A stretch of DNA of 64,000 bases from a virus, in the IMG/VR virus record IMGVR_UViG_3300032180_000001, positions 64,001 to 128,000 of that record; one strand, given 5' to 3'. Position 1 is the first letter of the stretch; the number at the start of each line of letters is the position of its first letter. This document shows positions 2,960 to 43,534 of the stretch, one piece after another. A program made the position numbers and the translations under genes. The notes under the pieces are model-generated. The model made no database searches. It worked only from the letters and a program-made list of their open reading frames with translations, and had not been told where the DNA came from.

Positions 2960-2963
2960 TGTT

Positions 2964-24819: not shown

Positions 24820-24847
24820 CGCAACCAGCTCCTAGCATCATGGAATC

Positions 24848-25594
24848 ATGAGTGAATCGAAGGAGCGCTGGCTCCCTGTTCCAAGGTACGAAGGCCTGTA
24901 TGAGGTATCCGATCTCGGCCAAGTTCGCAGTCTTGATCGTTACATACGAGGAAAGTACGGATCTCGTTTCCTTCGCGGACGAGTTCTTCACCCAGGTTCC
25001 CCTCGAAATGCGCGTCGAACTGTATCGCTGTGCCGCGATGGTGAACGTGAGACTCGTCTCGTAGGTAATCTGGTCCTGGAGGCATTCGTCAGCCCGCGCC
25101 CCGTAGGACAGGTAATACGCCATGGCCGGGCTGGAGGCGGTGCGCTTAATGACAGCCTGGATAATCTTGAATGGGGTACCCCAGAAGAGAACATGGGAGC
25201 GGACTGCCTTCGTGACGGCACAGATCGCAGGGGTGAAAAATGTGGAATGGCAAAGCTGACTGCAGCTATCGTCACGGAGATGCGCATCAGGTACCTGGCT
25301 GGAGAAACAGTAACTTCTCTCGCAGCAGAATTCGGAGTTAGCGAATCGACGGCAAGTAATGCGATAACCGGAAAGAGATGGAGCTGGCTGCCCGGTGCTG
25401 TGCCGATTGACAATAAACGTCGTGGAAAACAAGGAGAAAATCATCACGCTGCAAAGCTTACGGCCGAGATAGTCCGGGAATGCAGAATTCGTTACGCAGC
25501 AGGCGAAACTACATACGCACTTGCCGAAGAGTTCGGAGTAAAACAGCCAACCATGCAAAAGGCCATCTCGGGTAAAACCTGGAAGAACATTTAG
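24848..25594 (+). CDS. NUMOD4-HNH endonuclease with two C-terminal HTH repeats (antisense insertion)
   Basis: ERWLPVPRYEGLYEVSDLGQVRS NUMOD4; IRH...NDSLDNLEWGTPEEN; two AKLTA..V.E.R.RY.AGET...LA.EFGV repeats. Confidence 0.9.
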   Translation: MSESKERWLPVPRYEGLYEVSDLGQVRSLDRYIRGKYGSRFLRGRVLHPGSPRNARRTVSLCRDGERETRLVGNLVLEAFVSPRPVGQVIRHGRAGGGALNDSLDNLEWGTPEENMGADCLRDGTDRRGEKCGMAKLTAAIVTEMRIRYLAGETVTSLAAEFGVSESTASNAITGKRWSWLPGAVPIDNKRRGKQGENHHAAKLTAEIVRECRIRYAAGETTYALAEEFGVKQPTMQKAISGKTWKNI

Positions 25595-25628
25595 CCCCGC
25601 GATCACCAAACTGTCCGCAGTCATTTAA

Positions 25629-28600
25629 TTACCACCCGCCATAATTTCCGCGGCTTGCCGCCCGATGTGCCGATCCGGTGAGCGCTTGGCTGAAGGCCGG
25701 TCCCTGCCGGTTGACCGCCGCCGTGTTCGCGTCCATCGACGCCCGCAGGGCACGCATCTCGTTGAGACTTTCCCGCTCGTAGGCAGTCATTCCGTCAGGA
25801 GAAACCGGCCGCGACGATCTGCTGTCACCGTGCCCTCGTGGCGAGATCCAGCCGCTGCGGCTCGGGGTGAGCATTTCCGGAGCGCCGGTCTGGTTGTTGA
25901 TCAGGTTCAGGCCTGGCTGGACGAGACCGCCCTGGTCGAAACGACGGCCGTGCTCGTCTATCCCGTGAATGCCGGTTGCCTTGCCTGCCAGCTTCAGCGC
26001 CTTCGTCTGTCCCTTGTCCATGAGGAACTGCTGCACGGCAAGCTGAGCGGCATCGTAGTTAGCTTGCATGCCCGCGTACAGCCCGCCATTCTGAGTCGCG
26101 GACTTGCCCACCCAGGAGGCGGGGTTGAAGACGTTCGCCACCATCAGGTCGCCGAGTTCCGGCTGCATCGCCCAGCCGAGCGGCGTAACCGAGCCCGGTC
26201 CGGAGATCAGGTATTTTAGCATCGGGTTGGTGGTCAGCGCCCGGACGAGCTGCAGCACGGGCGTGTTCGCCGTCGGCAGCTGCAACCCAGCACCGCCGGG
26301 CAGGGCACCGAGCTTCTGCTCCAGCCCCCGCAGGACCCCTTGGTCACCGGTCACCCTGTTTCCGGCATTGAGGTAGGCCCGGAGCGCCCGCTGGTAATGC
26401 CAGTTGTCGGTTTTCCACTTTTTCGAACCCTTTCTGTCATGCCCCAGGATCCGCTGGTCTGTTTCTGCCACACCGTAAGCGATGTTCGCTGCCTTCTCCG
26501 CGGCGGCGATCTTCTTCTCTTCTGAGGAGATCTGCCGGACCAGAGCGGCCCGCTCCTGCTCGGGAATGGCGGCGAGAACCGCCTCACGGTGCTTAATCGC
26601 CAGCTGGTCTTTCCCGATCGCGAATTCGGCACCCTTGTAAAGCTTGCTGTCCCGGAAGTACCCGGCGTCGTCGTGGTGCTTGCTGTCGTTGGCCATCCCG
26701 GCGGCGGCTTTCGCTGCGGCTGCCTGATCGCGAGTCAGTTTCGCCAGCAGTCCCCGCAGGTACCTGTCGTTGCCCGGGTTCTGCTGGTACTGCGCCACCT
26801 GTTTCGCCGCAGCATTGTAAGCAGCCTGGTCGCCCTTCTCAACCTGCCCGGCATGGAACAGCGCGGCCTGCGCCTTCTGGTAATTTTTCAGCTCGAGACG
26901 GTAAGCCGGGCTGGTCTTGCTGCCCTTGAACCGAGATAGGGTGCCGCCGAGCGACTCCACATTAGCCAGCGCCGCCGCAACGGCGTCTTTTGCATGCGTC
27001 AGGGCCAGGTCGTCGCGCTGGACGGTCTGCTGCGCCTTCTGCAACGGAGTTAGCGCCATCCACGCCTTGTATGCCTTGATGTTCGCCTGCTCGGTCGCGG
27101 CGGCAAACAGCGCGTTCTGCGCCTTGACGCTGTCAGCGGAGTACGCGCCGGTCAGCCCGTGCGCCAAGTCGTAATTCATCTTATTGCCGTAGCGAGTCTC
27201 GGCGCGCTGGTCAGCTGCCAGCGCGGCTTCCATCCCGGCTAGGGTCTGCTTCGGGGTTTTCGGCTTCGGTTTCTGGCCTGGTTTTCTGTTCCGCTGATGC
27301 CCCCCGTGGCCGCCGCTCATGCCGGGGATGCCCAGCCGCTCGCCAACCGTGAGAAGGTTCGGGTTCCCGCCAATCACCGAGCGGTTGGCGTCCCAGATCT
27401 CCGCCCAGTCACCCGCGTTACCGAGGAACCGCGCCGCGATGCCAGAGAGCGTGTCACCCGCCTTCACGTTATAGACTAGGCCACCCTTACTCTTCATGAA
27501 ACTAGCCGCGAGTGATAGTCCGGTAGAGTGCACGTCATTAATGCCATACCGTTCGACACCCTTACCCCAAAGATTAGCTGCCTCTAGTACTGACGTTGTT
27601 GATTTCATCTGACTGATAACTCCCTGATCGCCAGATGAATTGACGAATTCTATAATGGCGGGAAGCTGCGTTTTCATTCCGCCCTTAAAGGCAGCATCAG
27701 AGATAGTACCCGCCGGCGTCCAGCCAATGAGCCCTCGTCCGCCAGTGCCAGCAGCAAACGGGTTCCAGTTCGACTCTCCCCAAATTGATGCCGTAGCGCC
27801 AGCAGCAGCGAACTTTTGTCCGCCGAACAAATTTGTCAGCAGATAGTTATACAGCTCCCTGCCGTTAGCCATTTCCGAGCCAGTAGCACCGCCCGCCGGG
27901 CCGGTCCCAACTCCGCCTGCCAGCGCCGACGCTCCGGCCTTCGCGATGTGCGCAACCGCCTCTTGCGCTAGCTTGGGCGGCATGCCGCTCAGAATCCCGG
28001 CCAGGTTGCGCGTGCCGGTACCTTTCGCCGGATTACCGGTACCTTTCAGCAGGTCAACGACGGCCTTCGCGTTTCCGGCACTCGTTTGCAGCAGCAGATC
28101 GGTACCGACAGCGGAGAGCTTGCCCAGCGCGGAGGGATCCGGCCCGGTCGGAACGGTACTCACGCCGCCGCTGGCCGCGACGGACCCGCCCATGTTCGTT
28201 GGAGTCTGCTTCGTGCCCAGGCTCTTTAGAAATGACCAGAACTCTGCGCCCCCTGCGGTCAGTCCGCCGCCCTGGGTCAGCGGATGGGTGCCGGAAGGAT
28301 CAGCAAAGCCAGTTTCTATCGAGCTGCCATTCATCACGCCGATAACCTGACCGGCAGTGAGGCTTCCGCCTACTTTGAGACCGGGTACCAGCGGAACACC
28401 TTCAGCAAGATAAACAACACTGCCAGCCTTAGGACCGTCATTCAGACGGTAGGTGAAGAAGGTGCCCGGACTTGGTCCAGCGGGCGGACCCCAGCCGCCT
28501 TCTGATGTGCGGAGAATAGTTCCGTTACCAATAGCGAGCACCGGACCTGCACCGGTGAAGTCGACTCCTTGGTCAATCCTTGAACTTCCGGCACTTGAGG

Positions 28601-31600
28601 GAATCGGGTTAACATAGCCACCACCGACCACACCGCCCTTGGCGAACCCCGGAACGCCCATCGCCTTCAGCGCGCTTGCGTGCTTCCGGACGGTCATCTT
28701 GTCAACGACGGCTTCGCCGGGCTCGAGAAGCGCGGGTACGGAGTCGCCGCCGCCGAAGCCGTCGAGTCGGCCACCGCGGGCCATCGTAGCAATCTTCGGG
28801 ATGCTGCCCGAGACGCTTGCCCACGAGCCAATCGAGTTGATGCCAGTCACCAGGTTGTTCAGCCCGCCGATCGACGTGTTAACGGGAGGCTTGATGACAC
28901 TGGTCAGGCGCCCCCAGGCCCCGCCGACGTTGCTGACTCCGGTGGCGAATGCCTGCGGCACCTGGCTCGTGTAGATGGTGGTCATGGTGCTCAGGAACGG
29001 GCTCTTCTGCCAGGCGAGGTGACCGGTCATGATGCCGCGCACCGGCGTGTCGTACTGCGTCGAAGACGTTTTCGCTGATGCGTTGTAGACGCCCGGTATC
29101 GCCTGGGTGTACAGGTTGCTGATACCGGTGCCGAAGGTGCCCTGCTGCCAGTTCAGGTGCTGAGCCATCGTTGTGCGGACCGGCTTGTCATACCTGGACG
29201 AGGCAGCCTGCGCGCTGTTGTCGTAGACCGCTGGCAGCGCCTTGGTGTAGAGCTTGTCCATAGCGGTGCCGAACGTATTCTGCTGCCAGCCGAGATGACC
29301 GGTCAGCGTCTTCTGCACTGGCTTGGCAAACTTATCGCGAGTGCTTGCGGCTGACTTGTCGAGGCTGGCGGGGAGATCCTTGGTGAACACCCTGCTCAGT
29401 CCGTTACTGAACTGTCCCCTGACAAAACCTAGCGCGTCATTCAGGTTCTTTTTCACGGACTTGCCGAGCTTGCCCGTGCCCCCGTCACCGAGTTCGGCAT
29501 GCTTAGCGCTACCACCACCGGTGCTTGTCAGCGTAATTGCATGCGCGGGATGACCCGCTCCGCCGCCACCAACCGATCCGCCGGTCGCATACTTGTTGAG
29601 CCCGTCCAGGAATCCCGGTCCGTACATCTTCTTCAGGTGCGCGGCAGCGGTCTTGGTGAGCACGAACTCGCCGGGGGTGAGCATGGCCGGAACGGTATCA
29701 CCGTGTCCGGTGCCGCCGATGTGACCGCCCTTAGCGTGACCCGGCAGGCCGTACATCAACGCATTGAGTCCCGCCGCGCCAAGCTTTCCGAGGTGCATGG
29801 TATCCGGAACGAGGGTGATCGGGATCCTGAGGGGAGGTGGCTGCTGCACCGTTGGCTTGATGGGCGGCGGCTGCTGCACCTGCGGCTTGATCAGCGTTGA
29901 GTTGATAATGGCGATTTGGTTACTGTTCAACCCGAGATGATGTAGTAGGGCATCAACTTGTCCGGGATCACTGCCAGGCTTGATCTTCAGCTTATTAACG
30001 TCCGCTATCTGCGTGGAATTCAGCCCGATAAGTCCCAGCATTTTGTTCACGTCACGCGGATCACTGCCGGGGTGAATCTTCAGCGCGTTTACTTCGTTGA
30101 TCTTATGCTGGTTCAACTTGAGCCCTTGCAGAAGACCGGTAAGTCCCGCCCGCGCAATAGCCGAGCTGAGCTTGACAGATGGCGGAACCGCATGAATCTT
30201 TCCGGTAAGATCCTTTACACTGGCTGTGGCTTGATTAATCGGGACGTGCGCGTCTGTCAGGATTTTGATGAGCTTTCGCTGATTAGTGCCAATCGCGGTC
30301 TTGTTGTTACTAGCAACAGCCTGCGTCAGGTTATCAATGACAGCTTTCGCCTTTGGCGTCGTGGCGACCATGTCCTTGGTGTACTCAACCGCCTGTGCTT
30401 GAGAATGCTGCTGGTCCTGGATGACACCTGTGTACTTAGAAACCGACGCGGTCGCCTGCGCCTGAGTAGAAAGCCCGTCCTTCACGAGTGAATTGGCCAG
30501 CGCTGTCCGGTCAGCAACTAGCTTCTGTGCGGAAGCGTTGTTGTTCAGGTCCCGCGTGTAGGTGACAAGCGCCCTGCCGATGTCCGGTGGCGTGCCCGTC
30601 GTGCCCGGCTTGGTGATGTCGGCGTACCCCGCAGCAAGATTGACCGGACTCCTGCCCCCGCCCGGTGGCGTGCTGTACATGTCCCCCTTCGGACCTCGTG
30701 CGGGGACATAACCCGCCGGTGATGTGAATCCAGGATGAGGAGGCTGATCAACCGCAGGACGGCCCCGGCTGTCAGTCGGCGGAACATAACCGCCTCGGGT
30801 CACGTGCCCCGGCTGATTAGGCTTCGGTGGCGCTGGCTTGGGCGTCGTCGCAGTAGTGATTGTTGCTGCAGCCGTTGTCGCCGCTCCCGTCGTTATCCCC
30901 GCCGCAGTTGTCGCCGCCCCCGTTGTCGTGCCCGCTGCAGTCGTTGCTGCTCCCGTAAGTGCCGCTCCTGCCTTATTCGCCGCCGTATTTACCGCAGATA
31001 CTCCGGCATTGTTCAGCCTGTTCTGAGCATTTTGGGCAGCAGCCTGAGCGTTCGCGGCAGCAAGAAGCTGCGCCTGGGTAGCCTTGTGCTGGCCGTACAC
31101 CTTGTTCAGGTTCGTCATCTGAGCGACAGCCCCGGCCTGAGCATTATTCAGGGTCTTGTGTGCGGCGGCGAGCTGCGCGGAGGTAGCCGTACCGCTGGCC
31201 AGAAGTTTGTTCAGGTTCAGCTGGGCCGCAGCCGCCGACGCGTTGGCTCCCGTCAGGCCGCTCTGTGCTGCTTTTTTCTGCGCTGTTGTTGCCGGTCCCT
31301 GTGCCATCAAAGCGGTCAGCTTGTTCGTCGCCGCAGTTAGCTTGTTCTGCGCGTAAATCCCCGCGAGGATGGAGGCCCCGGTGACCAGTGGAGTGCCGCT
31401 CGCGCCCGTAGCCGCAGGAGAGACTGCCTTCGCCGCCTTCGCAGGAGAGACGCCCGCTTTTTTCTGCGCTGCCGCGATTGAAGCAGGTGTAGCACTGTAC
31501 GTCCCCGCCGGAACTGTAACTCCCGGCGCACCGAACTGATCGAAAACCGAACCGCCAGCTGCGAACTTATTCATTTTATGCAGGACGTCCGGCCCAAATT

Positions 31601-34600
31601 TATTCTCTAGCTTCTTCCGGGCATTCTTGTTGATCACGAACTCGCCGGGAGTCAGCAGCGCTGGCACTGTATCGCCACTGCCGCTACCGGGAACATGACC
31701 GCCCTTAGCGTAAGTAAATTCGAAGCTCAGGCCGAACGGAAGCGAAACGTGGACATGATGGCCGGTAAGCGCATTGTTAATAACATTGAAGAGAGTATTG
31801 CCGAGACCCGCGAGCCCGCTGATAGCCTCATCCCAGAGGTGCGCGGCCTCATGGCGCATCCCGTCGAAGATGACCGCGCCTTCCTGAAGGGCGGTGCTCA
31901 CCAGCCCGCTGAGCCCGCTGATCGCCTCGTCCCAGAGATGGGCACCTTCATGACGCATCCCGTCGAAGATGACCGCGCCTTCCTGGATAGCGTTGTTCAC
32001 CAGCCCGCTGAGCCCGCTGATCGCCTCGTCCCAGAGATGGGCACCTTCATGACGCATCCCGTCGAAGATGACCGCGCCTTCCTGGATAGCCCTGTTCACG
32101 AGGCCGTTGAGCCCGCTGATCGCGTCGTCCCAGAGATGTGCGCCCTCGTGCCGCGCTCCGTCGAAGACCACGGCCATCTCGTGCGGGAAAGAGTCACCGA
32201 TCGCGTGCACGAACCGGTTATGGAACCCCTGGGCGATGATGCTCCAGAAACCGTCGAACAGCTTCAGCGTGTTGGACAGGAATCCCTTCAGGTCGCTGCC
32301 CTTGCTCCCGACGAAGAAATCGTAGATCTTGTCGGCGACGTCGTGCTGGAATCCAGTGAAGACCCCAGCCCACGCCGTATGGAACACTCCGCCGATCGTT
32401 TTGCTTGAACTGCCCAGGGCTCCGACGACCGAGTTCGGGTCACGCGGACCGCCCTGCCCGGAATCTGACGTCCGGTGACCGGTAAAGAACCCTGTCACGG
32501 CATTGGCACCGCCAACAGAGATATTCGCCGCGCCCTGCCTAGTGAACAGCAGGTTGGCGATCGGCTGGAACCAGCCGGGGACCGTTTTGTTGTACGTTGC
32601 CAAGTTAGACGCCTGCGTTGGCTTGCCCACCACAGCATTGCTGACGCGACCGAGCACCTGACCGATGATCGCGGCGATAAGTGCAGTCCCGCCCGCGCCC
32701 CGCAGCAGCCCTTCCCCGCCCGCTCCTTCAGCTCCCCCGCCTGCCTTGCCGAACAAGCCCTTGAACCAGGTGCCAAACCGGGAGAAGAAGCCACCGGCCG
32801 CCAGCTCGCCGCCCTGCACGACATCGGATGTGCCGCGGGCACCGGGGATGCCAGTGGGCGGGCCGAACTTGCCCCCAGTCGCTGCTCCGGCTGTTTCTTC
32901 AGTCGCAACAGTCGCTCCGCCCGAAACCAGCGCTTCCCTGATCATAGCTGCGGCACTAGTGCCTCCTTCCTCGAACGCCGTTCTCATCAGGGCAGCTGCG
33001 TTTGAACCATCAACTTTCCCGCCGAGAAGACCACCGGTAAGCCTACCCAGAAGACTGCTACCGCTGAGAGCTTTGAAAAGGCTAGTAACACCAGTGAATT
33101 TCAGCAGTGCAATACCAGCAAGCGTGACCGCGATGCTCTCCAGAAATAGTTTGCCAGCCGTGTTCTTACTGATGTCCTTGACCCAGCCAGCGAAAAGGTT
33201 CAGCCCGTGCATAAGCGGAATGCCAACAACATCGATGATCTGCTTCAGGTTAAGCCGCAGGCTCTGGATCGTATCCGAAAAGCTGCTGGTGCCTGGTTTG
33301 GCGGCAGTCGTTGCCTTTCCCAGGTTCAGCGTGTAATTTGCCAGGTCATTAACGTACTTCGCGGCGTCCGGCCCGTAGATGCCTACTGATTTCAGGTCGG
33401 CGAGAAGCTGTACGCGATCCTTGCTGGCTGCGGCCTTATTGCCTTTTCCAAGGTCCGTAGTAAACTTAGCAAGAGCTGTCTGCACCTTACCGGTACTGCC
33501 AACGAGGGCCTGCTGCGCCGGAGTCAGGTCGGATTGCAAGGTATGCGCGAGCGCGGCGGCCTTGCCCGTCAGGTTGCTGTTGCCGATGGTGACCGCGTTC
33601 TGATTCCCCTGAAGTTTAGTCAGGCTGCCACCCATCTGGCTGATCCAGTTCGTCGCCTGCTGGAAGGTAGTTACGTACGGAGCGGCCCGTTGCACCCAGG
33701 AAACTACCTCAGCTTGCCAGGTCTTGTTGTTTCCGGCGGCCGTAACCATCGCCGCACCCGTATCAGCGATAGAACTCGTCAACTGTGGACCGGAGGCTCC
33801 TGCCTTCATGTTGGCGTCGACGAGAGAGTTAGCGTTGGTCAACAGCGACTGAAAATCAGTGTTCACTGTGTCGTAGGTGCTCGTGCCAGACGCAATGTCC
33901 GTGTTGAAAGTCTTCATGCTCTGGCCGAAGGTAGCCATCGACGTCTGGGTGCCAGTAACGATGCCGTACCAAGTGTCCCAGGCGCTCGTCAAGTTGTTAA
34001 TCGCTGTCACCTGGTCGTTGGCAGTTACCGACAGCACGTTCATGTCGCTGCCGACCATGCCCATCGTCTGGCCCATGTTCAGGTAACCGGTTACCAGGGA
34101 CGCGATCATTTGCATGGAGGTAGCCCACGCTTTGTTGTCCGCATTGGTGAAATCAGATACCTTGACTCCGGCTGTCTGTGCCAACTGCATTGCTGCGGGC
34201 AGACTGATTCCGTAGAGCTTCGAAATCTGAACAAGGCGCTCGGATTCAAGGGTGAAGTCCCCGAGGAGTTGCTGACGCGACTGGCCGAGCGTTCTCGCAT
34301 CAGCGCTGCCCGACGCTACTGCCTGCCGCCATGCGGCGGTAACATTCTTCAGCGAATTTTCTGTCGTGCTGAGCATAGTAATGGGTGTCGAATTAGCAAC
34401 GGCTGCAATTTGCGCGGATGCGTACTTCTGCATGGCATCCTGTGCCTTGACAGCCCAGACAACTACGGCAGCCAGTGCTGCTGCGATAAAGATGGCACCG
34501 CTTACCGCAGCCGGACCGAGTCCTTTCAGGACTTCACCAAATCTGGCGATCCGGCCACCCAGTGCTTCAAACATCGGTCCAACGACAGCCCAGCCTTTAG

Positions 34601-37600
34601 CCGCTGCGAGCCCGATGCCAAGACGTTCAACCAAATTCAAAAGGGCAGTAGCAGCAAGTCCGCTCCAGGCGTAGAGGGCATGCAGCCCGATTGCCCAGGC
34701 TGCCAGGGCGCCGCCAAACGGCGTATGGATAAAGTCAGCGACTACTCGAAACAGCTTGGTGACAGCGACGCCGATTCCTAGCATAATCTCAGCAATATGC
34801 GTTCGCTGGGTGATCCCGGCCAGAGCCCCCAGGAGCGCTCCAAGGTTAGCAAACGCTGTTGCCAGACCGGCGATGTCGCGCTGTCCCATCTTGATAAAGT
34901 TTGACAGGCCGGTACCAGAGCTGGCTTTATTCATGTCCACGGCAATGCGGGCGGCTGTCCTGTCTAGTGCCGTTCCGGTGTCCGTGATCAGCTTTTGCAT
35001 CACACCGCCACTCTTGCTGGCCATTGCGGTGAGCGCACTTCCGTATAGTTCGAATACCTGCGGGCGAACTTGATCCTGCAGCGCACTGAAAGAATTACCT
35101 AGTGAACTTACCTTTGTCGTAACGCCACCTGCTTGAGCGCCTAGCTTCTGAAGACTACCGCCTGCCGACACCACCATGAAATTCATCTGCGTGCCCATAG
35201 CCGTCGTCACAGTACCCAGATTTTTCACATATGTGGTAACCTGCGTAACCGCATCTTTGGCAGCAAGAGCAAATCCGCCGAGACCGAGCGCCAGCGTAGC
35301 CAGCGCCGGAATCCAGACGGCAAAAATTTCAACAGCCAGTTCCATGGCGATATGCCAGAGCTTGACGCTTTTCGCCGCACCATTAAATGCCTGAACCTGC
35401 TGCTGCATCCAGCCGAACCAGCCACCCGCACCCTTTGTGAGGAACGGGGTAATACCACCTCCGCCGGCTGCACCTGCCGCACCTGCTGCAGCGGCTGCAA
35501 GAACTCCACCCCCTCCACCGCCCTTGCCCCCGCCTGCACTCCCAGCCATAGTAGTGGCCATGACGGAACGCAATCTCCCGTACGCAGAGGCGAGATCTTT
35601 CACCCGGGCGATGTCTCCGGCGGTAGCCTTACTGAGGTCTATACTAGCTATATCTTTCAGTTCATCCTGAAGTCTTATCGCTTCGACAGCAATATCAGCT
35701 AGTACCCTCTTGGCGGAATCGCTGTCAACATGAGTTGCAAGGCTTATCAGGGTTTCCTTTATCTTCTTCGACTCAGCATCAAGCATAAATAGCTTATTCA
35801 TCGCCTCCGTAATGTCAATATTAGCGGCTGCGGTCTGCGGTGCAAGAAACTTCTGATATTCTTTAAGTGCAGCTTCCTGAAGTTTGCCGAGATCATTCCA
35901 GTCTTTCGTCATTTTCCGGGCTAGGTCATCCCAGGCTTTCCGCTGGTCCGCGTCAAACTTAAGATTATCCTTATTAGCGGACGCTTGCAGCTTACTGAGA
36001 TCATTCCAGTCTTTTGTCATTTTCCGGGCTAGGTCATCCCAGGTCTTCTGCTGATCCGCACCACCAGCAGCGCCACTCGCCGTATGCGCGGCTTTGACCC
36101 GCTTCAGTTCCTTTTCTGCCTGACTTAGCAGGGTTACCATCCGGATAACAGTGTCCGCCGCTGCCGCCTGGCTCATGAGGTCGACAGTCGACTGCTTCAT
36201 CTCATTCGATAGCTTGCTCTGCTCAATCCGGAGAATCATGGCCTGAGCAGCAGAATAACCGGCCTTCTCACCGAGATCAGACGTTGCAGCGTCAAGTTCC
36301 TTTAGTTTTGCTATCATATCAGCAGGAATAATAGTATTAAGCGGTTCGAATGCCTTTGCTGACTTTGCTGCCTGCGCTGCTGTTGCCGCCATAGTCGCGC
36401 CCAGTCCGCCGGTACTATCGGCTGCGGCATCTGCTGCCTTTTCCTGTACTTTTTCCGCAGCAGCAGCCAGGTACTCAGCCGCAGCCATCCCGCCTATCGC
36501 AGCGGTGGTGACAGTATATCCCTTATCAGCATAACCCCTAACGCCACCCTGACTTGACTCCCCGTATCCCTTGGCGTAAATAGCCCGGACGCGCTCAACC
36601 TCAGCAGCAGTCGTTTCAACTGTGTTCTTGAGCTTACCCCACTTACTAATTTGCAAGGTGATCGAAGTGTCCGCTGCTGCCGTTACCCGCTGATACTCCT
36701 GAAGGAAGCCTTTGCCCGTACCTACTTTCTCCGTCCAAGTGACTAGCTCCGCTGTTGCTTTCTCCATCGCCGGTGCCAGATTAACTTCCGGGGTGATCTT
36801 TGGCTTTTCCGTTGCGATTTTTTCGTCGAGCGCTGCTGCTTCCGCTAGTGCCGGTTTTTCATCAAGCTTCGGAGTAACAACCGGCGTATCAGCTTGATTG
36901 AAAGCAGCTTTCGCAGCCGTAGCAGCCTCTTTACTGCCATTCTCTATCGCCGTCCTGAACTCCCGGGTCGCGGCTTCCTTATTTACAGTTAGCGGCACCG
37001 CGACGGGCTTCATGACCTCCCCTACCCGGGCCTTAGCCGCCGTCATCATCATGTCCTGATACAGCTTATCGCGTGCTGCTTCCGACATCTTCGGCTCAAC
37101 AGGCACCTCGACTGGCTTACTGATCTTCGCGTCAAGCGCTGCCACCTCCGCCGTCGCCGGTCCCAGATCAACCTTCGGCTGAATGAATTCTTGCGACGAT
37201 ACTCGGTGCTTGTATTCCCCGCCGACAAACATGGCCTGCTGCCGCTGAAGATCTGTCAATGTCTGCTGGTTATGCTGCGGGACAAGGTTAACTTTCTGAT
37301 CCCGGTAAAGCTGGACTAGTGCTGCATCTAGATTCTTAACACCACTGAGCGCCGCCCGCAGATCCGTCAGGTTGATGTATCCTCCGGGCCTGTCCCCGCC
37401 TGCGGTTGCCATACTGCGGATCGTGGTCATAATCAGCTTGTCGAGCGCCATAACTTCCGTCATGGCCGGAGCCGTGTCCGCAGTAATCGACACCTCGGGC
37501 TTCTCTGCTTCTATAGCTTTGTCAAGCGCTGTGCATTCTGCCATGGCAGGAGCTGTGTTCAGTTCGGGGGTAACGACGGGCTTAGCTGCGGTAAGAGCAG

Positions 37601-40600
37601 CCTGAAATTTTTCCTGAACCTTGCGCATAAGAGCGGATGACTCGAAAGCTGCAAGGAACTCATTTATATCCGGAACAGCTTCGACAGGAACGGTTAGCTT
37701 AGTACTACTCCATTGTGCGCCAAGTGCCTGTGCGGCGGCAAGATTAGCATCCTCAACTTCTGTTCTATAGGTATCAAAAAATTTCTTCTGTGCCTTCGTC
37801 AGCGGAACCGTGATCGCCTCAGCAGTTGCGTCACCCGCACCCTTCATCGTTGTCCGGACCTTGTCGGCAAACCCGGTTAGCGCTGTCTCCGACTCTTCTA
37901 TGCTCGGCCCGAGATCAACCGGTATCTCAACAGGATTGGCCTTCACCTCCGCAACAGCCGCGGTAACAGCCGTTGCGACCTCCGGCATGACCTTCGACGT
38001 GTCCGCAGTGAACGGAACGCTTGCCGCCGCCGCCGCTGCCGCCTCTTGCGCGGCCTTCTTCAGCCTGGCTTTCATCACCATGTCGGCCTGCTTCTCCGAC
38101 AGCCCGGCCGCGATCAGCTCCGGTATCCCTCCCGCGACGGGCTTGTACTCTTCCCGCCCGACCGACATCTGCACGCTCTTCATAAAGTCGGCCATATTGG
38201 CTTTAACCGGGATTGTCCGGCTCTGAGTTATCCGCGCCATCTCCGCCTGGATCTCGGCTTCGCTGAACTTAGCCTTCATTTCGACTGGATGAGCTGCAAT
38301 CTCGGCATCCGCCACCGCGACTACCTTAGCTACCTCCGGGGTAATCACCGTTGTGTCTGTCTTGATTTGTTCCACAATCGGATTAGCCGCTGCCCAGGCG
38401 CTTGCTGCTTTTTTCGCTTTATCTAGATCATCATCCAGGTCTTCCAGGTAGTCAGCCGCAGGCCGAACAGATACCGTAGCAATAATCTTATAACCGGTTT
38501 TTGATGCATAGCTACCAGAACTTGGGTAGGCTGACGCATGAGGGGCATTATCTGCCGGATTTACGGGGGCGACCTGGTACGTATATCGACCAAGCAGGTT
38601 AGCCGCATTTGGTTTCTCATTAGCCCACGCCAGTCCGCTCCTACCGGGGTTAATGATATCTCCGACATCTAGCTTCGCATTAGTTGCGTGAAACAGGTCC
38701 TTTACCTCAGTGACGGCAGCAGTGGCCTCTGAGATAATTTTTTCTGTGTCAAGTTCTACCGGAATTTTAGTGTTCCTGTACTTAGCCTTTATGGCGGCTA
38801 GCTGCGCCTCAATCGGATCTTTATTTATATCTGGCGTGAACTCCATCTTCATCGACTTCATAATCTCGGCGACCGACTTGTCCGGCACCGGTACTGCGTT
38901 CTCCGGCTTATACAGGACCTGAGTAGCGCCCTTAAATACATCCTTCGAAGGGACGTCGAACGACCGGACAACGAAACCAAGCTCTTTCAGCTTAGGCAGC
39001 CATTCATCAAACCAGGTGTTCAACTGCTTCATGTCCTCGAATGCGCTGCGAGCACCTTCGCTGAAAAGCTTTATTGCCTTGTCTTCACTGACGATGTTTC
39101 CAAGAAGCGAGTCTTCCCAGACAGGAGGGTGCTCCCAATCTCGGGCGTTGTGCGTTGATGGTGCCGTCTCGGACACGCCAGGACTGCCCGCGTACGGCCC
39201 CCTGCCGGTCTCTGCATGCTCAACGCGGAAGATGCGAGTCATCTCCTGCTTTACTGCGGCTTCAGCAGCTTTGTCCATAACAGGCTCAACCGTAACCGGC
39301 AGGGCTTCAAGGTGAATATTCCGAACGCCCTCAATAATTTGATCTTTAAGTACCTTAAACGGCTGATTTCTCGGGAAGGTAAATTCATGTGCGTCGTCCG
39401 GGAGATCCCCCAGGGCTATACTCTGCCTATTCAGGGCCTTGACTCCCGGTCCTGCAGTAATTTTCATCAAGGTGGTGCCGAATGTTTTTGCTACATCCTC
39501 CGACACTGCGGCGCTAGTGTAGCCCTTATCCTGGATTATCTGACCGGTCTTACTCCCAACACTACCGAGAATCTCATCAGGCTTATTAACACCCCGAAAC
39601 AAAGTAACCTGCTGAGTAAAATCTGATACTTTATTAATCAGGGAGTCAATATCTGAGACAATACTAGCAACACCATTATCCTGAGTACTTCCAGCACCCC
39701 CGACTGATAGACCCCTTAGTTGATCCTGTATTGTCTTGAAAGACCACTCGTAATACCTTTTCATAGCAAACAGGTCGTCTTCAGTCGTGCTGCTAGGAGT
39801 CCCTTCGCTGGACTTAGCTAGTTTCATTCCTGACAAAGCCTGCTTCATCTCCCGGGAGGCATCCCTGAACTCCCCAGCAGACATCTGCACGCTTCGCATA
39901 AAGTCGGCCATTGACGATCCAGCGCTCGCGGTCGGGCCAGGCCCTGCAACCCCCGCTCCCGCAACCCCCGCTCCCTCAAGCCCAGAAGAATCAACCCGGA
40001 TCTTGACCGTCCGGTCCCGGGTGACGATCTTCAGCATCTCTTCGGCCACATCGATCGAACGGTCATCCAGGTCGGCCCGTATCCTCACCATGCGCTCGGC
40101 GGTCAGCGCGTCCAGTGCCGCCTGCGCCGCAGCCGAGTCCAGGACGACGTCGATCTCAAGGTCCTGTCCCGGCGGGAGTACGAGCTTTCCAACGTCAAAC
40201 GTCACCGGAATCTGGGTAGTAAGGCTGCGAAGCTCCGCCAGCTTCCGGTCCAGATCAGCCGTGTTGATATCGATGCTCAGGTAGTCGGACAGACCGGTTT
40301 GCGCGATCAGCTTCTTGATCAGCATGAGCTGGCTGCGGATCTTCGACTGAGGCACGTTAACATCAGCGAAGTCCGCCAGGCCAGACTGGGCTGCCAAAGT
40401 CTTCAGCTTCGCGAACGCCGCAGGAGCGCCCTCAACATTGACGCCGACATCAACCGTCCGGTCCGCCGTCAGGGCATTCAGCTCCGTTTTCGCCGCCGTC
40501 ACAGAACCAGGCTTCAGGTAAAACTCGACCGGAATATCCGCCACGACATCCTGAGTAACGGCGGCAACCTTAACCTGCAAGCCAATTGCGGTACCCAGAT

Positions 40601-41159
40601 TGAACTCAGCCGGAATATCCGCCTTAACGCCTTCGGTAACCGCATCAACCTGAGCCTGCAGTCCGCCCGAGCCACCGCGGACACCAAGATCGACAGGAAC
40701 GAGTGCGCTGGCGCCTTCCGCCATGGCATCAATCTTTACCTGAAACTCGGCCCGAGATGGCATGTTAAGGTCAACCGGTATCTTGGCTCCGATACCCGCA
40801 GTCAGCGTCTCAACCTGAGCCTTCATTCCTGTTTTAGTTCCAGTCAGGTCAACAGGTACCTTCGCCTTGATTCCTGCAGTCAGCGTCTCAACCTGAGTCT
40901 TTACGGCTGCCTTTGAAGGAAGCTTAAATTCGACTGGTATCTTTGCCTGAATCCCCGCGGTCAGCGTCTTAACCTGGCCTTGCAATTTAGTCTTAGTCCC
41001 AGTCAGCTCAATTGGAACCTTTACCTGCAAGTCATGATCAGTAAGAGCCAGCTTGTTAACTTCCCCCACCGCAGTTTTTACCTGCTTGGTAAGATCAGCA
41101 AAAAAACCGTCATCATTTGGTTTAATGTTAACGTAGGCCTCTCCCAAAAGACGGGCCAC
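25629..41159 (-). CDS. giant tape measure protein with ART-like, M23-like, tail-lysozyme and LysM domains
   Basis: 5176-aa ORF after chaperone genes; MARLLGEAYVNIKP start; Ala-rich helical core; 33-aa W/F repeats; three GGxxxGxGxGDxVPAxLxPGExV units. Confidence 0.9.
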   Translation of the reverse strand: MARLLGEAYVNIKPNDDGFFADLTKQVKTAVGEVNKLALTDHDLQVKVPIELTGTKTKLQGQVKTLTAGIQAKIPVEFKLPSKAAVKTQVETLTAGIKAKVPVDLTGTKTGMKAQVETLTAGIGAKIPVDLNMPSRAEFQVKIDAMAEGASALVPVDLGVRGGSGGLQAQVDAVTEGVKADIPAEFNLGTAIGLQVKVAAVTQDVVADIPVEFYLKPGSVTAAKTELNALTADRTVDVGVNVEGAPAAFAKLKTLAAQSGLADFADVNVPQSKIRSQLMLIKKLIAQTGLSDYLSIDINTADLDRKLAELRSLTTQIPVTFDVGKLVLPPGQDLEIDVVLDSAAAQAALDALTAERMVRIRADLDDRSIDVAEEMLKIVTRDRTVKIRVDSSGLEGAGVAGAGVAGPGPTASAGSSMADFMRSVQMSAGEFRDASREMKQALSGMKLAKSSEGTPSSTTEDDLFAMKRYYEWSFKTIQDQLRGLSVGGAGSTQDNGVASIVSDIDSLINKVSDFTQQVTLFRGVNKPDEILGSVGSKTGQIIQDKGYTSAAVSEDVAKTFGTTLMKITAGPGVKALNRQSIALGDLPDDAHEFTFPRNQPFKVLKDQIIEGVRNIHLEALPVTVEPVMDKAAEAAVKQEMTRIFRVEHAETGRGPYAGSPGVSETAPSTHNARDWEHPPVWEDSLLGNIVSEDKAIKLFSEGARSAFEDMKQLNTWFDEWLPKLKELGFVVRSFDVPSKDVFKGATQVLYKPENAVPVPDKSVAEIMKSMKMEFTPDINKDPIEAQLAAIKAKYRNTKIPVELDTEKIISEATAAVTEVKDLFHATNAKLDVGDIINPGRSGLAWANEKPNAANLLGRYTYQVAPVNPADNAPHASAYPSSGSYASKTGYKIIATVSVRPAADYLEDLDDDLDKAKKAASAWAAANPIVEQIKTDTTVITPEVAKVVAVADAEIAAHPVEMKAKFSEAEIQAEMARITQSRTIPVKANMADFMKSVQMSVGREEYKPVAGGIPELIAAGLSEKQADMVMKARLKKAAQEAAAAAAASVPFTADTSKVMPEVATAVTAAVAEVKANPVEIPVDLGPSIEESETALTGFADKVRTTMKGAGDATAEAITVPLTKAQKKFFDTYRTEVEDANLAAAQALGAQWSSTKLTVPVEAVPDINEFLAAFESSALMRKVQEKFQAALTAAKPVVTPELNTAPAMAECTALDKAIEAEKPEVSITADTAPAMTEVMALDKLIMTTIRSMATAGGDRPGGYINLTDLRAALSGVKNLDAALVQLYRDQKVNLVPQHNQQTLTDLQRQQAMFVGGEYKHRVSSQEFIQPKVDLGPATAEVAALDAKISKPVEVPVEPKMSEAARDKLYQDMMMTAAKARVGEVMKPVAVPLTVNKEAATREFRTAIENGSKEAATAAKAAFNQADTPVVTPKLDEKPALAEAAALDEKIATEKPKITPEVNLAPAMEKATAELVTWTEKVGTGKGFLQEYQRVTAAADTSITLQISKWGKLKNTVETTAAEVERVRAIYAKGYGESSQGGVRGYADKGYTVTTAAIGGMAAAEYLAAAAEKVQEKAADAAADSTGGLGATMAATAAQAAKSAKAFEPLNTIIPADMIAKLKELDAATSDLGEKAGYSAAQAMILRIEQSKLSNEMKQSTVDLMSQAAAADTVIRMVTLLSQAEKELKRVKAAHTASGAAGGADQQKTWDDLARKMTKDWNDLSKLQASANKDNLKFDADQRKAWDDLARKMTKDWNDLGKLQEAALKEYQKFLAPQTAAANIDITEAMNKLFMLDAESKKIKETLISLATHVDSDSAKRVLADIAVEAIRLQDELKDIASIDLSKATAGDIARVKDLASAYGRLRSVMATTMAGSAGGGKGGGGGGVLAAAAAGAAGAAGGGGITPFLTKGAGGWFGWMQQQVQAFNGAAKSVKLWHIAMELAVEIFAVWIPALATLALGLGGFALAAKDAVTQVTTYVKNLGTVTTAMGTQMNFMVVSAGGSLQKLGAQAGGVTTKVSSLGNSFSALQDQVRPQVFELYGSALTAMASKSGGVMQKLITDTGTALDRTAARIAVDMNKASSGTGLSNFIKMGQRDIAGLATAFANLGALLGALAGITQRTHIAEIMLGIGVAVTKLFRVVADFIHTPFGGALAAWAIGLHALYAWSGLAATALLNLVERLGIGLAAAKGWAVVGPMFEALGGRIARFGEVLKGLGPAAVSGAIFIAAALAAVVVWAVKAQDAMQKYASAQIAAVANSTPITMLSTTENSLKNVTAAWRQAVASGSADARTLGQSRQQLLGDFTLESERLVQISKLYGISLPAAMQLAQTAGVKVSDFTNADNKAWATSMQMIASLVTGYLNMGQTMGMVGSDMNVLSVTANDQVTAINNLTSAWDTWYGIVTGTQTSMATFGQSMKTFNTDIASGTSTYDTVNTDFQSLLTNANSLVDANMKAGASGPQLTSSIADTGAAMVTAAGNNKTWQAEVVSWVQRAAPYVTTFQQATNWISQMGGSLTKLQGNQNAVTIGNSNLTGKAAALAHTLQSDLTPAQQALVGSTGKVQTALAKFTTDLGKGNKAAASKDRVQLLADLKSVGIYGPDAAKYVNDLANYTLNLGKATTAAKPGTSSFSDTIQSLRLNLKQIIDVVGIPLMHGLNLFAGWVKDISKNTAGKLFLESIAVTLAGIALLKFTGVTSLFKALSGSSLLGRLTGGLLGGKVDGSNAAALMRTAFEEGGTSAAAMIREALVSGGATVATEETAGAATGGKFGPPTGIPGARGTSDVVQGGELAAGGFFSRFGTWFKGLFGKAGGGAEGAGGEGLLRGAGGTALIAAIIGQVLGRVSNAVVGKPTQASNLATYNKTVPGWFQPIANLLFTRQGAANISVGGANAVTGFFTGHRTSDSGQGGPRDPNSVVGALGSSSKTIGGVFHTAWAGVFTGFQHDVADKIYDFFVGSKGSDLKGFLSNTLKLFDGFWSIIAQGFHNRFVHAIGDSFPHEMAVVFDGARHEGAHLWDDAISGLNGLVNRAIQEGAVIFDGMRHEGAHLWDEAISGLSGLVNNAIQEGAVIFDGMRHEGAHLWDEAISGLSGLVSTALQEGAVIFDGMRHEAAHLWDEAISGLAGLGNTLFNVINNALTGHHVHVSLPFGLSFEFTYAKGGHVPGSGSGDTVPALLTPGEFVINKNARKKLENKFGPDVLHKMNKFAAGGSVFDQFGAPGVTVPAGTYSATPASIAAAQKKAGVSPAKAAKAVSPAATGASGTPLVTGASILAGIYAQNKLTAATNKLTALMAQGPATTAQKKAAQSGLTGANASAAAAQLNLNKLLASGTATSAQLAAAHKTLNNAQAGAVAQMTNLNKVYGQHKATQAQLLAAANAQAAAQNAQNRLNNAGVSAVNTAANKAGAALTGAATTAAGTTTGAATTAAGITTGAATTAAATITTATTPKPAPPKPNQPGHVTRGGYVPPTDSRGRPAVDQPPHPGFTSPAGYVPARGPKGDMYSTPPGGGRSPVNLAAGYADITKPGTTGTPPDIGRALVTYTRDLNNNASAQKLVADRTALANSLVKDGLSTQAQATASVSKYTGVIQDQQHSQAQAVEYTKDMVATTPKAKAVIDNLTQAVASNNKTAIGTNQRKLIKILTDAHVPINQATASVKDLTGKIHAVPPSVKLSSAIARAGLTGLLQGLKLNQHKINEVNALKIHPGSDPRDVNKMLGLIGLNSTQIADVNKLKIKPGSDPGQVDALLHHLGLNSNQIAIINSTLIKPQVQQPPPIKPTVQQPPPLRIPITLVPDTMHLGKLGAAGLNALMYGLPGHAKGGHIGGTGHGDTVPAMLTPGEFVLTKTAAAHLKKMYGPGFLDGLNKYATGGSVGGGGAGHPAHAITLTSTGGGSAKHAELGDGGTGKLGKSVKKNLNDALGFVRGQFSNGLSRVFTKDLPASLDKSAASTRDKFAKPVQKTLTGHLGWQQNTFGTAMDKLYTKALPAVYDNSAQAASSRYDKPVRTTMAQHLNWQQGTFGTGISNLYTQAIPGVYNASAKTSSTQYDTPVRGIMTGHLAWQKSPFLSTMTTIYTSQVPQAFATGVSNVGGAWGRLTSVIKPPVNTSIGGLNNLVTGINSIGSWASVSGSIPKIATMARGGRLDGFGGGDSVPALLEPGEAVVDKMTVRKHASALKAMGVPGFAKGGVVGGGYVNPIPSSAGSSRIDQGVDFTGAGPVLAIGNGTILRTSEGGWGPPAGPSPGTFFTYRLNDGPKAGSVVYLAEGVPLVPGLKVGGSLTAGQVIGVMNGSSIETGFADPSGTHPLTQGGGLTAGGAEFWSFLKSLGTKQTPTNMGGSVAASGGVSTVPTGPDPSALGKLSAVGTDLLLQTSAGNAKAVVDLLKGTGNPAKGTGTRNLAGILSGMPPKLAQEAVAHIAKAGASALAGGVGTGPAGGATGSEMANGRELYNYLLTNLFGGQKFAAAGATASIWGESNWNPFAAGTGGRGLIGWTPAGTISDAAFKGGMKTQLPAIIEFVNSSGDQGVISQMKSTTSVLEAANLWGKGVERYGINDVHSTGLSLAASFMKSKGGLVYNVKAGDTLSGIAARFLGNAGDWAEIWDANRSVIGGNPNLLTVGERLGIPGMSGGHGGHQRNRKPGQKPKPKTPKQTLAGMEAALAADQRAETRYGNKMNYDLAHGLTGAYSADSVKAQNALFAAATEQANIKAYKAWMALTPLQKAQQTVQRDDLALTHAKDAVAAALANVESLGGTLSRFKGSKTSPAYRLELKNYQKAQAALFHAGQVEKGDQAAYNAAAKQVAQYQQNPGNDRYLRGLLAKLTRDQAAAAKAAAGMANDSKHHDDAGYFRDSKLYKGAEFAIGKDQLAIKHREAVLAAIPEQERAALVRQISSEEKKIAAAEKAANIAYGVAETDQRILGHDRKGSKKWKTDNWHYQRALRAYLNAGNRVTGDQGVLRGLEQKLGALPGGAGLQLPTANTPVLQLVRALTTNPMLKYLISGPGSVTPLGWAMQPELGDLMVANVFNPASWVGKSATQNGGLYAGMQANYDAAQLAVQQFLMDKGQTKALKLAGKATGIHGIDEHGRRFDQGGLVQPGLNLINNQTGAPEMLTPSRSGWISPRGHGDSRSSRPVSPDGMTAYERESLNEMRALRASMDANTAAVNRQGPAFSQALTGSAHRAASRGNYGGW
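31800..32170 (-). repeat. 99-bp (33-aa) tandem repeat, about 4 copies, inside the tape measure gene
   Basis: EGAVIFDGMRHEGAHLWDEAISGLSGLVNNAIQ-type units. Confidence 0.85.
35880..36060 (-). repeat. 108-bp (36-aa) duplication inside the tape measure gene
   Basis: WDDLARKMTKDWNDL occurs twice. Confidence 0.85.
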
Positions 41160-41160
41160 A

Positions 41161-41556
41161 TCACACCGTCCCTTCTAGATCGAACAAGCCGGTGGTAAGG
41201 AACGGATAAGAGTTAGCCTCGGAACCTGGGCCGCCCGGCCCGTGCATCTGGATAGCAGGATGTTCCAGGAACACGGTGGGATTCGTCGGTGCTGCCGCGC
41301 TGCCGTAAATATGGCCGGTGTCATCCCAGCCGACGTACGGGTGCGTGAGTTCCTTGGTAAATCCCGGAGGCCTAGCGTTACTGCCCCGTCCAGTCCGGGC
41401 CGAAGCAGGCGTCCCTGGGCGAACATGCACCACAGCGATCGCGACTGCCGCAGCCCGGTCCGCGAGATCGAGCATCAAAGGTGCGACGAGACCCGTAGGA
41501 GAATTCAACATCTCAAATACCGCCTCTTCTGAGATATGAACGTCATCCACGTCCAA
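41161..41556 (-). CDS. putative neck/tail-completion protein (HK97 gp10-like)
   Basis: Size, LNSPTGLV...VFLEHP...YPFLT pattern and position. Confidence 0.5.
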   Translation of the reverse strand: MDVDDVHISEEAVFEMLNSPTGLVAPLMLDLADRAAAVAIAVVHVRPGTPASARTGRGSNARPPGFTKELTHPYVGWDDTGHIYGSAAAPTNPTVFLEHPAIQMHGPGGPGSEANSYPFLTTGLFDLEGTV

Positions 41557-41565
41557 GCGCCTCCT

Positions 41566-42608
41566 TTACATCCCCATAAAAGACCCGGGGATCTCCTCGT
41601 CCTTGCCTTCTGCTTCCCAGGGCACAAGATTGCCGTCGGCTCCCTTGCGGAACCCACTGACAGGGGCGTCCGGGTTCTCGACCACCATTCCCGCTGCCTC
41701 CTGGAAGGCTTTCAGTGCCTTCAGCGCCTCCTTCTCCGGATCGACGCGCTGGCCGATCGTTTCCTCGAACGCTTCCAGCTGGTCGGCGTCCATGCCGTCC
41801 GTGCAGATCGCGTACACCATGTTGAGCAGCTGGCGCGGGGTTAGCGCCTCGATGCCTTTTTCCGTGTGCCGGAGCCGTTCCCCGTCGAGACGCGCTGAGT
41901 GGTGGGCGGCGTAACTGAGGAGCCATCGCGCGGCTTGGTAGGGCGCCCGGAGACGATCTCCATCACCTGCGAGATCACCGGCAGAAGCTCTTCCGCGTCA
42001 GCCTTGGTCTCGATGGCATGATTCTCGAAGGCCTGCCAGTCGCCCGTGTCGAACGACTTGCACATGGCCTCCCGGCCGGCCTTGCAGTGCTCGCAGTTGC
42101 CGCATGCCTTCGAGCCCGCATAAATGCAGTCTCGCAACATCATGTAGACCGCTCCCAGGGCGCGCGGGTCGTCGGATGACATATCCGCCGCGGACGCGTA
42201 CTTGAGCAGGGGCATCAGGCCGATCTTCTCCGCGATGCGGAACTTCTTCCCGAGCAGCTCGATCGTGTCGTGGTTCTCGATGACCGCACCCTCGGTGATC
42301 ATCGGCGCCCCCTCGGCCTTCGCGGCCCTGGCGTGCACGACGGCGAGATCCCGGTCGTCCTCGTTCGAGATGCCGTTCGCGGCTGCCGTAGCGGCTGCCT
42401 GAGGGGGCGTCACCGGTGCGGGCACAGAGGCGGGTGCGGAAGACTCCTCTTCCTCATCATCATCATCGTCGTAGTCGTCGACCGGAGTCGGCGTAGGGGT
42501 AGCGCGTGCGGCTGGGCTCCGGTACGCAGGAGGCGGTGTCGGGGTAGGCACATTGTCGGCTTCATTCCAGTCGATCTCGATATCGTAATCGGCTTCCTGA
42601 GCAGGCAT
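41566..42608 (-). CDS. tail assembly chaperone pair (short form 41841-42608; predicted -1 frameshift extension to 41566)
   Basis: The short ORF ends ...SGRPTKP...; the -1 frame is open from 41943 as PYQAARWLL...LTPRQLLNMVYA and continues into ORF 41566-41820. Confidence 0.7.
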
Positions 42609-42785: not shown

Positions 42786-43534
42786 TTACGTACCGGAGAT
42801 GCCCGTGGTGGGATAGCGCATTATCGCGCTTGCTGCGCTGAACGTGCTCTTCATGGAGACCGCTGCCGCAACGCCGCCGGCGACGGCGTAGTCGGGAAGG
42901 ATCTTGCCGAAGAAGTACTGGCCTGGCCCGGCTCCCTGCACGCCGACCGTGGACGGGTAGAGGTAAAAGTTCCGGGGCTGGCCGTCGGTCGCCGCGACGT
43001 AGGTCTGCGCAGTGGCAGTGTCGTAGAAGCCGGTAAAGTCACCGGATGCGTCCGGCAGGCCGGCCACCCAGATCAAGTTAGAGTCTCCCATGGTGGTGAC
43101 GTCTACCTTGGCGACGGTGAAGTTGAGGCTCCAGTCTGACAGAAACGCCATCGGGCTTGCTGAGTCGGTCGGGTTTACGCCAATGTAAGCGATCGTTCTG
43201 TTACCTCTCGTCCTTTTTACAGGGCGAGCGGGCTGGTCATTTCTGCCAGCCTCTGCATGTCTCCATGCAGTCCGGACTATACCTTCACCCACAAGGGGTG
43301 CCACGTACCTAGTCTCTGAACCATCCCGTCGAGACCTTTCAGTTCAGGCGGGCTCGGCTGCTGATTACCCCTGCTAATCTCTTTTTGAACCATCGCGCTC
43401 GCGTTTTCACGCCACGCTGTGGTGCGATCAGGTGACTCGGGCGTCCCAGCAATTCTCGCAGTTTGCACTGAGTGATTGCTCTCTCAGGCGGCCAGTCGAC
43501 CGTTGCGTCCATGAATTCTCGAGATGGTACTCAT
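42786..43534 (-). CDS. major tail tube protein, two exons (43534-43499 and 43193-42786)
   Basis: Spliced product MSTISRIHGRNG|IAYIGVNP...WSLNF...VDVTTMGD...GLPDASGDFTGFYD (147 aa) resembles actinophage tail tube proteins; AAGGAG upstream. Confidence 0.8.
43194..43498 (-). ncRNA. group I self-splicing intron (305 nt, no ORF)
   Basis: P AATTGCTGGG (43454-43445), Q AATCAGCAG (43366-43358), R TCAGAGACTA (43319-43310), S AAGGTATAGTC (43285-43275). P1 has U-G at the splice site, the intron ends in G, P9 has a GAGA tetraloop, and removal restores the reading frame. Confidence 0.92.

Follow-up and report, generated by a model that had tools for sequence, protein, structure and literature searches.

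The stretch of DNA analysed here, referred to as the window, comprises 64,000 nt and corresponds to bases 64001–128000 of a 184,980-bp IMG/VR virus record. The record represents an uncultured soil phage, is 99% complete according to CheckV, and a soil metagenome is the only public run containing the stretch. A single open frame of 5176 codons on the minus strand of the window (25629..41159) codes for a giant protein of 5176 aa (P0001), which is very probably the tape measure protein (TMP) of the phage tail. Within the N-terminal third of this protein we found a block of 572 residues (aa 417–988) with three globular inserts in series, namely an ADP-ribosyltransferase (ART) domain of the R-S-E clade (domain i), a member of the T4 Y00F family (domain ii) and an Arr-like domain (domain iii), and this block is bracketed by two copies of a Met-rich motif.

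The block boundaries are marked by a 32-mer at 38164–38195, which is repeated at 39880–39911 with 29 of 32 nt identical and a spacing of 1716 bp, equivalent to 572 codons. All three mismatches are contained in one Lys/Arg codon (AAG vs. CGA), and both copies encode the peptide MADFM(K/R)SVQMS. Copy 1 (MADFMRSVQMS, aa 417–427, minus strand 39879..39911) forms the left boundary of the block and copy 2 (MADFMKSVQMS, aa 989–999, minus strand 38163..38195) the right one. The repeat search gave two matches in the window versus none expected from 100 shuffles, which confirms the bracketing by in-frame repeats of this identity and distance that had been proposed in an initial annotation of the window. 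The flanking copies use the same codon at nine of their ten shared residues (P ~0.003, calculated from the codon usage of the gene itself), and the similarity between them drops sharply beyond ~39 nt. A degenerate third copy, VAEIMKSMKME (VAEIMKSMKMEF), was detected by a protein pattern match between domains ii and iii (aa 763–773, minus strand 38841–38873) and shows 64% DNA identity to copy 2 over 39 nt. The initial annotation had also named internal initiation at MADFM as a point to be checked; such a translation start is unlikely, because no Shine-Dalgarno-like sequence can be read from the DNA ahead of either ATG.

The three embedded domains

Domain i extends over aa 456–619 (minus strand 39303..39794) and matches the Pfam family PF03496 (ADPrib_exo_Tox) with 29.6 bits when searched as part of a 1033-aa piece, 35.5 bits as an isolated domain and 33 bits in the search of the genome, all above the cut-off of 23.4; its homologues span aa 440–627. 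From a search of 1.8 billion proteins we obtained 45 homologous domains, resulting in an alignment of 46 domains in all. R522 of the TLFRG sequence is located on a column with Arg in at least 90% of the 46 aligned domains, S549, the first Ser of the S-T-S motif, on a column conserved to at least 90%, and E592, the catalytic Glu of the [QE]-x-E motif, on a column conserved to ~90%. The S-T-S motif itself reads S-A-A, and the first position of [QE]-x-E is occupied by A590, where ~70% of the homologues have Glu. By family, domain i is therefore a VIP2/Alt-type ART of the R-S-E clade, as the initial annotation had it, since the Pfam score exceeds the gathering score and the Arg, Ser and catalytic Glu residues are present. 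Its nearest relatives are ~28% identical and are found within large phage proteins of several domains each; one of these is a MuF fusion, and another is encoded among clustered large genes that may be structural. Relatives of domain i also include the proteins P0005 (980 aa, JGI) and P0112 (2160 aa); in one relative, a Zeta-toxin kinase domain has an ART domain on either side, and a different protein contains seven ART repeats.

Domain ii (aa 638–760, minus strand 38880..39248) is by its sequence a member of the PF26820 or T4 Y00F family. It matches phrog_1106 at aa 631–773 with an E value of 1.8e-25, and the precomputed Pfam hits of PF26820 (Phage_T4_Y00F) include the protein of the window itself (P0002), an orthologous giant protein from another contig (P0003) and the stand-alone protein P0031. 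More than 100 stand-alone homologues of ~115 aa each were retrieved by the 1.8-billion-protein search. The near-invariant residues of the family, R645, G654-P-Y656, H670, W716-F717 and Q747, are all retained in the embedded copy. An AlphaFold (AF2) model of the domain, based on a 60-sequence alignment, reached a pLDDT of 80.5 and a pTM of 0.76. In the ESM Atlas, this model shows a TM score of 0.74 to a cluster consisting to 94% of PF26820 members, while BFVD returned E values down to 1e-8 against small uncharacterised proteins of many cultured phages, the next rows being named ADP-ribosyltransferase and Arr. Among the 50 best PDB chains for the model, at least 42 are ART-fold proteins (best Z 5.0; Foldseek E at least 0.25), and the ART folds matched include MbcT, TreTu, RES toxins, ParT, PARPs, DarT, diphtheria-, cholera- and pertussis-type toxins and KptA. 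Judged from the model, domain ii thus probably adopts a fold of the ART superfamily, which is in keeping with the fold of "possibly ART-like" nature previously assigned to this insert, albeit with low Z values throughout. No relationship was detected by hhalign between the Y00F alignment and either Arr-3 or domain iii.

Stand-alone Y00F-like homologues also occur in the INPHARED collection of cultured phages (H1–H6), annotated as hypothetical proteins, e.g. gp14 of Streptomyces phage phiBT1, gene 5 of Arthrobacter phage Atuin, gene 39 of Streptomyces phage Euratis and a gene of Pseudomonas phage PHB09; the carriers are actinophages and Pseudomonas phages. On metagenomic contigs (L010–L014), Y00F-like genes are situated within runs of unannotated small genes.

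Domain iii (aa 822–908, minus strand 38436..38696) corresponds to the stretch LFHAT...KIIATV and is a sequence orphan, as neither the search of the 1.8 billion representatives nor a word-indexed search yielded any homologue. Searching the PDB sequences by phmmer, with the cassette or its individual domains as queries, yielded no meaningful match, and the ESM Atlas provided weak leads from domain iii to clusters of Arr-ms and PARP proteins. We compared the domain directly with Arr-3 from plasmid NZ_MN961670.1 and obtained a BLASTP match with an E value of 4e-5 and 26% identity over residues 20–140 of Arr-3. The Smith-Waterman score of this pair was 58, compared to a mean of 26 (SD 4.4) after shuffling, and none of 3000 shuffles of either sequence reached the observed score. 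Both proteins have in common an N-terminal F/Y-H-x-T...L..GD segment, a GR.Y.Y.V.P strand and a C-terminal LEDL helix. The active-site residues of Arr-ms are reportedly His, Tyr and Asp. H824 of domain iii is aligned with the His of the F-Y-H-G-T sequence of Arr-3, and the Asp of its PADN sequence lies one position off the acidic E-D-D of Arr-3. It is rather likely from these alignments that domain iii is derived from the Arr family, although it falls short of the curated threshold for membership. Arr proteins are stand-alone resistance enzymes, whereas domain iii is embedded in a TMP and has ~19 residues fewer, including the Tyr strand.

The positions of all three inserts agree with those given in the initial annotation. 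Its designation of domain iii as an Arr-like ART of the His type is supported by the similarity over the whole Arr core; the His residue is aligned, the Tyr strand falls in a gap, and the Pfam score stays below the cut-off.

Relatives of the giant protein and assembly of the block

The block is preceded by a conserved N-terminal region (aa 1–416, minus strand 39912..41159) with short (V/I)PV(D/E) repeats, which is 42% identical to aa 1–368 of the ENA protein P0153, 36–37% identical to the JGI protein L005 and 38% identical to aa 1–133 of P0003. The 1208-aa fragment P0153 shows 42% identity over aa 1–430 of the window protein, contains none of the three domains and carries a single copy of the motif (MATFMKSLQMM, aa 371), which aligns with both copies of the window. 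Past this motif, its linker modules align weakly to the sequence following copy 2 of the window, and a membrane core follows ~290 residues on. The two alignment segments of P0153 overlap on its single motif, which is the pattern expected of an insertion or deletion between duplicated junctions. The 1339-aa fragment L005 lacks all three domains as well, while P0003 contains domain ii alone of the three, 45% identical to that of the window and located directly after the conserved N-terminal region; a recognisable motif is absent from both of these proteins. Because the block sits between two copies of a motif that is single in the nearest relative, it was probably gained, or is losable, via recombination at the motif, with the reading frame left intact.

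A second assembly of the phage from ENA (P0152) contains a cassette identical to that of the window. An artefact confined to one assembly thus appears an unlikely source of the block. Close relatives were found neither by DNA in INPHARED, nor by peptide patterns or a degenerate motif pattern in IMG/VR, nor in GTDB genomes, and a near-length search with aa 1–420 returned the protein of the window alone. A match from another metagenome (L006) turned out to be a Bacteroidota-type SprA protein and was discarded as a false lead.

Two linkers within the block (aa 776–812 and 914–975) are paralogous to TMP linkers outside of it (aa 1032–1093, 1328–1361 and 1429–1470), with 37% identity over 62 residues and an E value of 2e-8 between the linker of aa 1032–1093 and a block linker. 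Domains i and iii have GC contents at third codon positions (GC3) of 0.45 and 0.46, respectively, compared to 0.63 in domain ii and 0.56–0.71 elsewhere in the gene. Because native-type linkers are present inside the block, GC3 differs among the domains and the Y00F domain is common to P0003, the data suggest that the block was assembled stepwise, while a single mobile cassette fits less well. The Y00F domain would then represent the older cargo, to which the R-S-E and Arr-like domains would have been added later from DNA of lower G+C content, accompanied by duplication of the motif at the junction. The picture is one of domains that are elsewhere free-standing or head-packaged, here spliced in frame between the TMP's own short linker modules. 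A transposon-like insertion with target-site duplication is unlikely, as the block contains no transposase, has native-type linkers and shares its Y00F part with a distant orthologue. The swappable block of the initial annotation is thus supported by P0153 and L005, which lack it, and by P0003 with domain ii only; its composite look agrees less well with one mobile unit. The TMP copies are the only matches to PF03496 and Y00F in the phage genome, and no Macro domain was found there.

Carrier gene and genome setting

We accept the giant open reading frame (ORF) as a TMP gene because its neighbours are syntenic with those on another contig, L002, and because the protein contains hydrophobic segments (aa 1940–1967 and aa 2213–2241), a weak match to the tape measure family phrog_25241 (E 0.003), and Phage_lysozyme2 and LysM domains at its C-terminal end, as recognised by Pfam. 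The protein also contains repeated GDxVPAxLxPGE units. The tape measure models of Pfam and NCBIfam did not match the giant ORF, and no second tape measure candidate gene is present within the tail module of the window. Upstream of the gene, a major tail protein is encoded at 42786–43304 (phrog_10528), and two small ORFs of 127 and 131 aa (minus strand 41161–41926) directly precede the TMP gene, lying in different frames with 14 nt in common. This spot just upstream of a TMP gene is usually occupied by a pair of tail assembly chaperones with a programmed frameshift. Downstream of the TMP gene, a 271-aa gene and an 1100-aa gene follow, with tail-fibre-type and glycine-rich matches, and appear tail-tip-like. 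The gene order of tail protein, small ORFs, giant ORF and tail-tip genes is kept in L002 around the 2683-aa orthologue P0003, whose downstream 1136-aa protein is 37% identical to the 1100-aa protein of the window.

The 271-aa ORF (minus strand 24809–25624) is rich in Cys, Ser and Arg and of odd composition, and its product shows 26% identity to that of a 274-aa called gene of L002 (10634–11458). The 271-aa ORF and the next gene both start with DSL(V/I)(I/L)A, and the real frame or start may deviate from the listed ORF. Inside the TMP gene, a tandem repeat of 33 residues (AVIFDGMRHEGAHLWDEAISGLSGLV...) is encoded at ~31875–32282 of the minus strand (TMP aa ~2960–3095). The second assembly, P0152, has one 33-residue copy fewer and is otherwise identical to the window protein, representing either copy-number variation or an assembly difference.

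An additional globular insert is located downstream of the block (TMP aa 1236–1335, minus strand 37155–37454) and resembles helix-turn-helix proteins. It has no Pfam or PHROG matches; in the ESM Atlas it has 209 of 256 features (score 0.93) in common with stand-alone proteins of ~90–105 aa from phages and Actinomycetota which are named helix-turn-helix. With this insert, the cargo region would reach past the 572-residue block.

Cargo hypothesis, alternatives and implications

The balance of the evidence leans towards the N-terminal third of the TMP being a cargo region, in which three ART-superfamily domains between the copies of a duplicated motif are exchanged by recombination and sent into the host together with the DNA. 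The mechanism proposed for delivery follows from established knowledge on siphophage infection and from the T4 Alt precedent. The TMP would leave the tail before the DNA, with the C-terminus and its wall-lytic domains leading, and the N-terminal cargo would exit last and refold. It would then modify host targets with the help of host NAD+ right as infection begins, in the manner of T4 Alt, which acts from the head. The domain assignments, at the strengths given above, the repeat and the distribution of the block among relatives were observed, whereas the packaging of the block in the tail, its entry into the cytoplasm, its catalysis and its targets are what we infer from these analogies.

Several known systems resemble parts of this arrangement. 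Virion-delivered ARTs are represented by T4 Alt and by MuF-VIP2 fusions (PMC5512222, PMC7302621), which belong to the same clade as domain i (PF03496), are parts of virion proteins and are presumed to act at DNA entry. These proteins are carried in the capsid, either as fusions to MuF, a head protein, or as an internal protein, whereas domain i is located inside a TMP, in series with two ART-like domains, and shows the S-A-A and A-x-E variants. Polyvalent proteins, known from phages and conjugative elements, carry many effector domains including ARTs strung on one polypeptide which enters the host with the DNA, and solo versions of these domains occur elsewhere (Iyer et al. 2017, PMC5512222). 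They share with the block the serial arrangement of several effector domains including ARTs, but their carriers are MuF, portal, DarB-like or relaxase-linked proteins instead of a TMP, and the word "tape" is absent throughout that survey (PMC5512222). In the tape-measure-like effectors of contractile injection systems (CIS; Sle1/Tme), globular parts have been argued to adapt to the lumen and to fold after ejection, and the scaffold to accept foreign modules (PMC13277306). TMPs with embedded motifs and CIS effectors thus resemble P0001 in that the scaffold tolerates swappable functional modules (PMC13277306). The known embedded modules are wall-lytic or Rpf-like in actinophages and C-terminal membrane or toxin domains in CIS, whereas those observed here resemble NAD enzymes, are located N-terminally and lie between the copies of a duplicated motif. 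The Y00F protein of T4 itself consists of 166 aa, is encoded in the motB-dexA early region, has no known function and was not expressed in trials (PMC8076793). While Y00F members are small stand-alone genes among small genes, the TMP of the window and P0003 have the domain fused into the TMP.

A number of observations weigh against the cargo hypothesis. The lumen of a tail tube is expected to be too narrow for folded globular domains lying next to one another. Domain i has S-A-A instead of S-T-S and Ala instead of the first Glu/Gln of [QE]-x-E, a position that is important in characterised toxins when a protein is the target of the transfer. None of the structural matches of domain ii exceeds a Z value of 5, and values in this range can mirror a common arrangement, and neither Pfam profiles nor hhalign revealed a sequence-profile link of this domain to a known ART. 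Domain iii scores 13.7 bits with the Pfam profile Arr-ms (PF12120) versus a cut-off of 25 (E 0.07, profile positions 1–20 only), and a 19-residue gap spans the Tyr-bearing Arr strand. A single-sequence AlphaFold model of domain iii was unusable at a pLDDT of 41. Furthermore, a low GC content is also observed in some other parts of the N-terminal third of the TMP, and no near-isogenic block-less allele was among the four relatives found, all of which are distant or fragmentary.

In an alternative explanation, the three domains would be catalytically dead remnants, i.e. pseudoenzymes serving as spacers, plugs or tail-length padding and not as effectors. Domain i retains a single residue of S-T-S and has lost the first residue of [QE]-x-E, domain iii is ~19 residues shorter across the Tyr-bearing Arr strand, domain ii is without a recognised catalytic motif of a known ART clade, and the N-terminal third is all a repetitive array, the length of which could be the selected trait. 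We nevertheless regard this explanation as rather unlikely, since the Arg, first Ser and catalytic Glu of the R-S-E clade are kept in domain i on columns conserved to at least 90%, the near-invariant polar residues of Y00F (R, Y, H and Q) are all kept in the embedded copy, and block-less relatives do well, a point more easily reconciled with accessory cargo than with an essential structural part. A further explanation concerns the Met-rich motif, which may act as a peptide signal for protease cleavage or for docking to a chaperone or the tail tube, leading to release of the block as aa 417–762 plus 763–988 or in one piece. The nucleotide identity of the copies would then be secondary and would not represent a recombination scar. 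In P0153, the motif peptide is indeed kept in the corresponding place behind the N-terminal region, though encoded by other codons, the degenerate third copy is positioned precisely where domain ii gives way to the module of domain iii, and the hydrophobic residues of the motif are spaced i, i+3, i+4, i+7, reading like an amphipathic helix. However, selection at the peptide level alone leaves the identical codons at nine of ten shared residues (P ~0.003) unexplained, P0003 and L005 do without a recognisable motif, and we know of no protease specificity for such a Met-rich sequence. This makes a pure peptide signal distinctly unlikely in our view; the peptide-signal and recombination readings are compatible, and both can hold.

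It also appears very improbable that the giant ORF does not code for a tail ruler at all but for a fused ejection or "polyvalent" protein stored in the capsid or neck, the block being head-type cargo similar to the Alt and MuF fusions. Such a role would agree with the length of 5176 aa, which far exceeds that of ordinary TMPs, with the weakness of the tape measure profile matches (phrog_25241, E 0.003) and with the nearest ART relatives being found in MuF-type or other large virion proteins. It is opposed by the conservation of the tail-module gene order around the giant ORF in L002, by the hydrophobic core segments, the GDxVPAxLxPGE repeats and the C-terminal tail lysozyme and LysM domains, and by the tail module being without any other tape measure candidate. 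Extending the cargo hypothesis, the Met-rich motif could be a dedicated cargo-exchange junction, combining a recombination site with a processing site that frees the modules. The three NAD-using domains could then act jointly in the first seconds of infection, e.g. by re-programming RNA polymerase, disarming NAD-dependent defences or modifying a small molecule of the rifamycin type in an actinobacterial host from soil; we consider this extended version quite improbable.

Delivery of ARTs is a classic means of phage host takeover, and the known carriers of virion-delivered ARTs are head proteins. A full-text search of the literature did not reveal any publication in which an ART is part of a TMP. 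The distinguishing points of P0001 are the occurrence of three ART-type domains in series, the sharply bounded duplicated junction and a relative with a single-copy junction. If the cargo hypothesis is true, it would provide a natural scaffold to load proteins into phage tails, and P0153 with its one motif and no block offers a clear design for a deletion construct. It would also explain part of the extreme TMP length in phages of roughly 200 kb. The widespread T4 Y00F family would gain the hypothesis of being an NAD-utilising ART-fold enzyme acting early in infection. If TMPs carry exchangeable in-frame modules, the first protein to cross the envelope would double as a vehicle for effectors.

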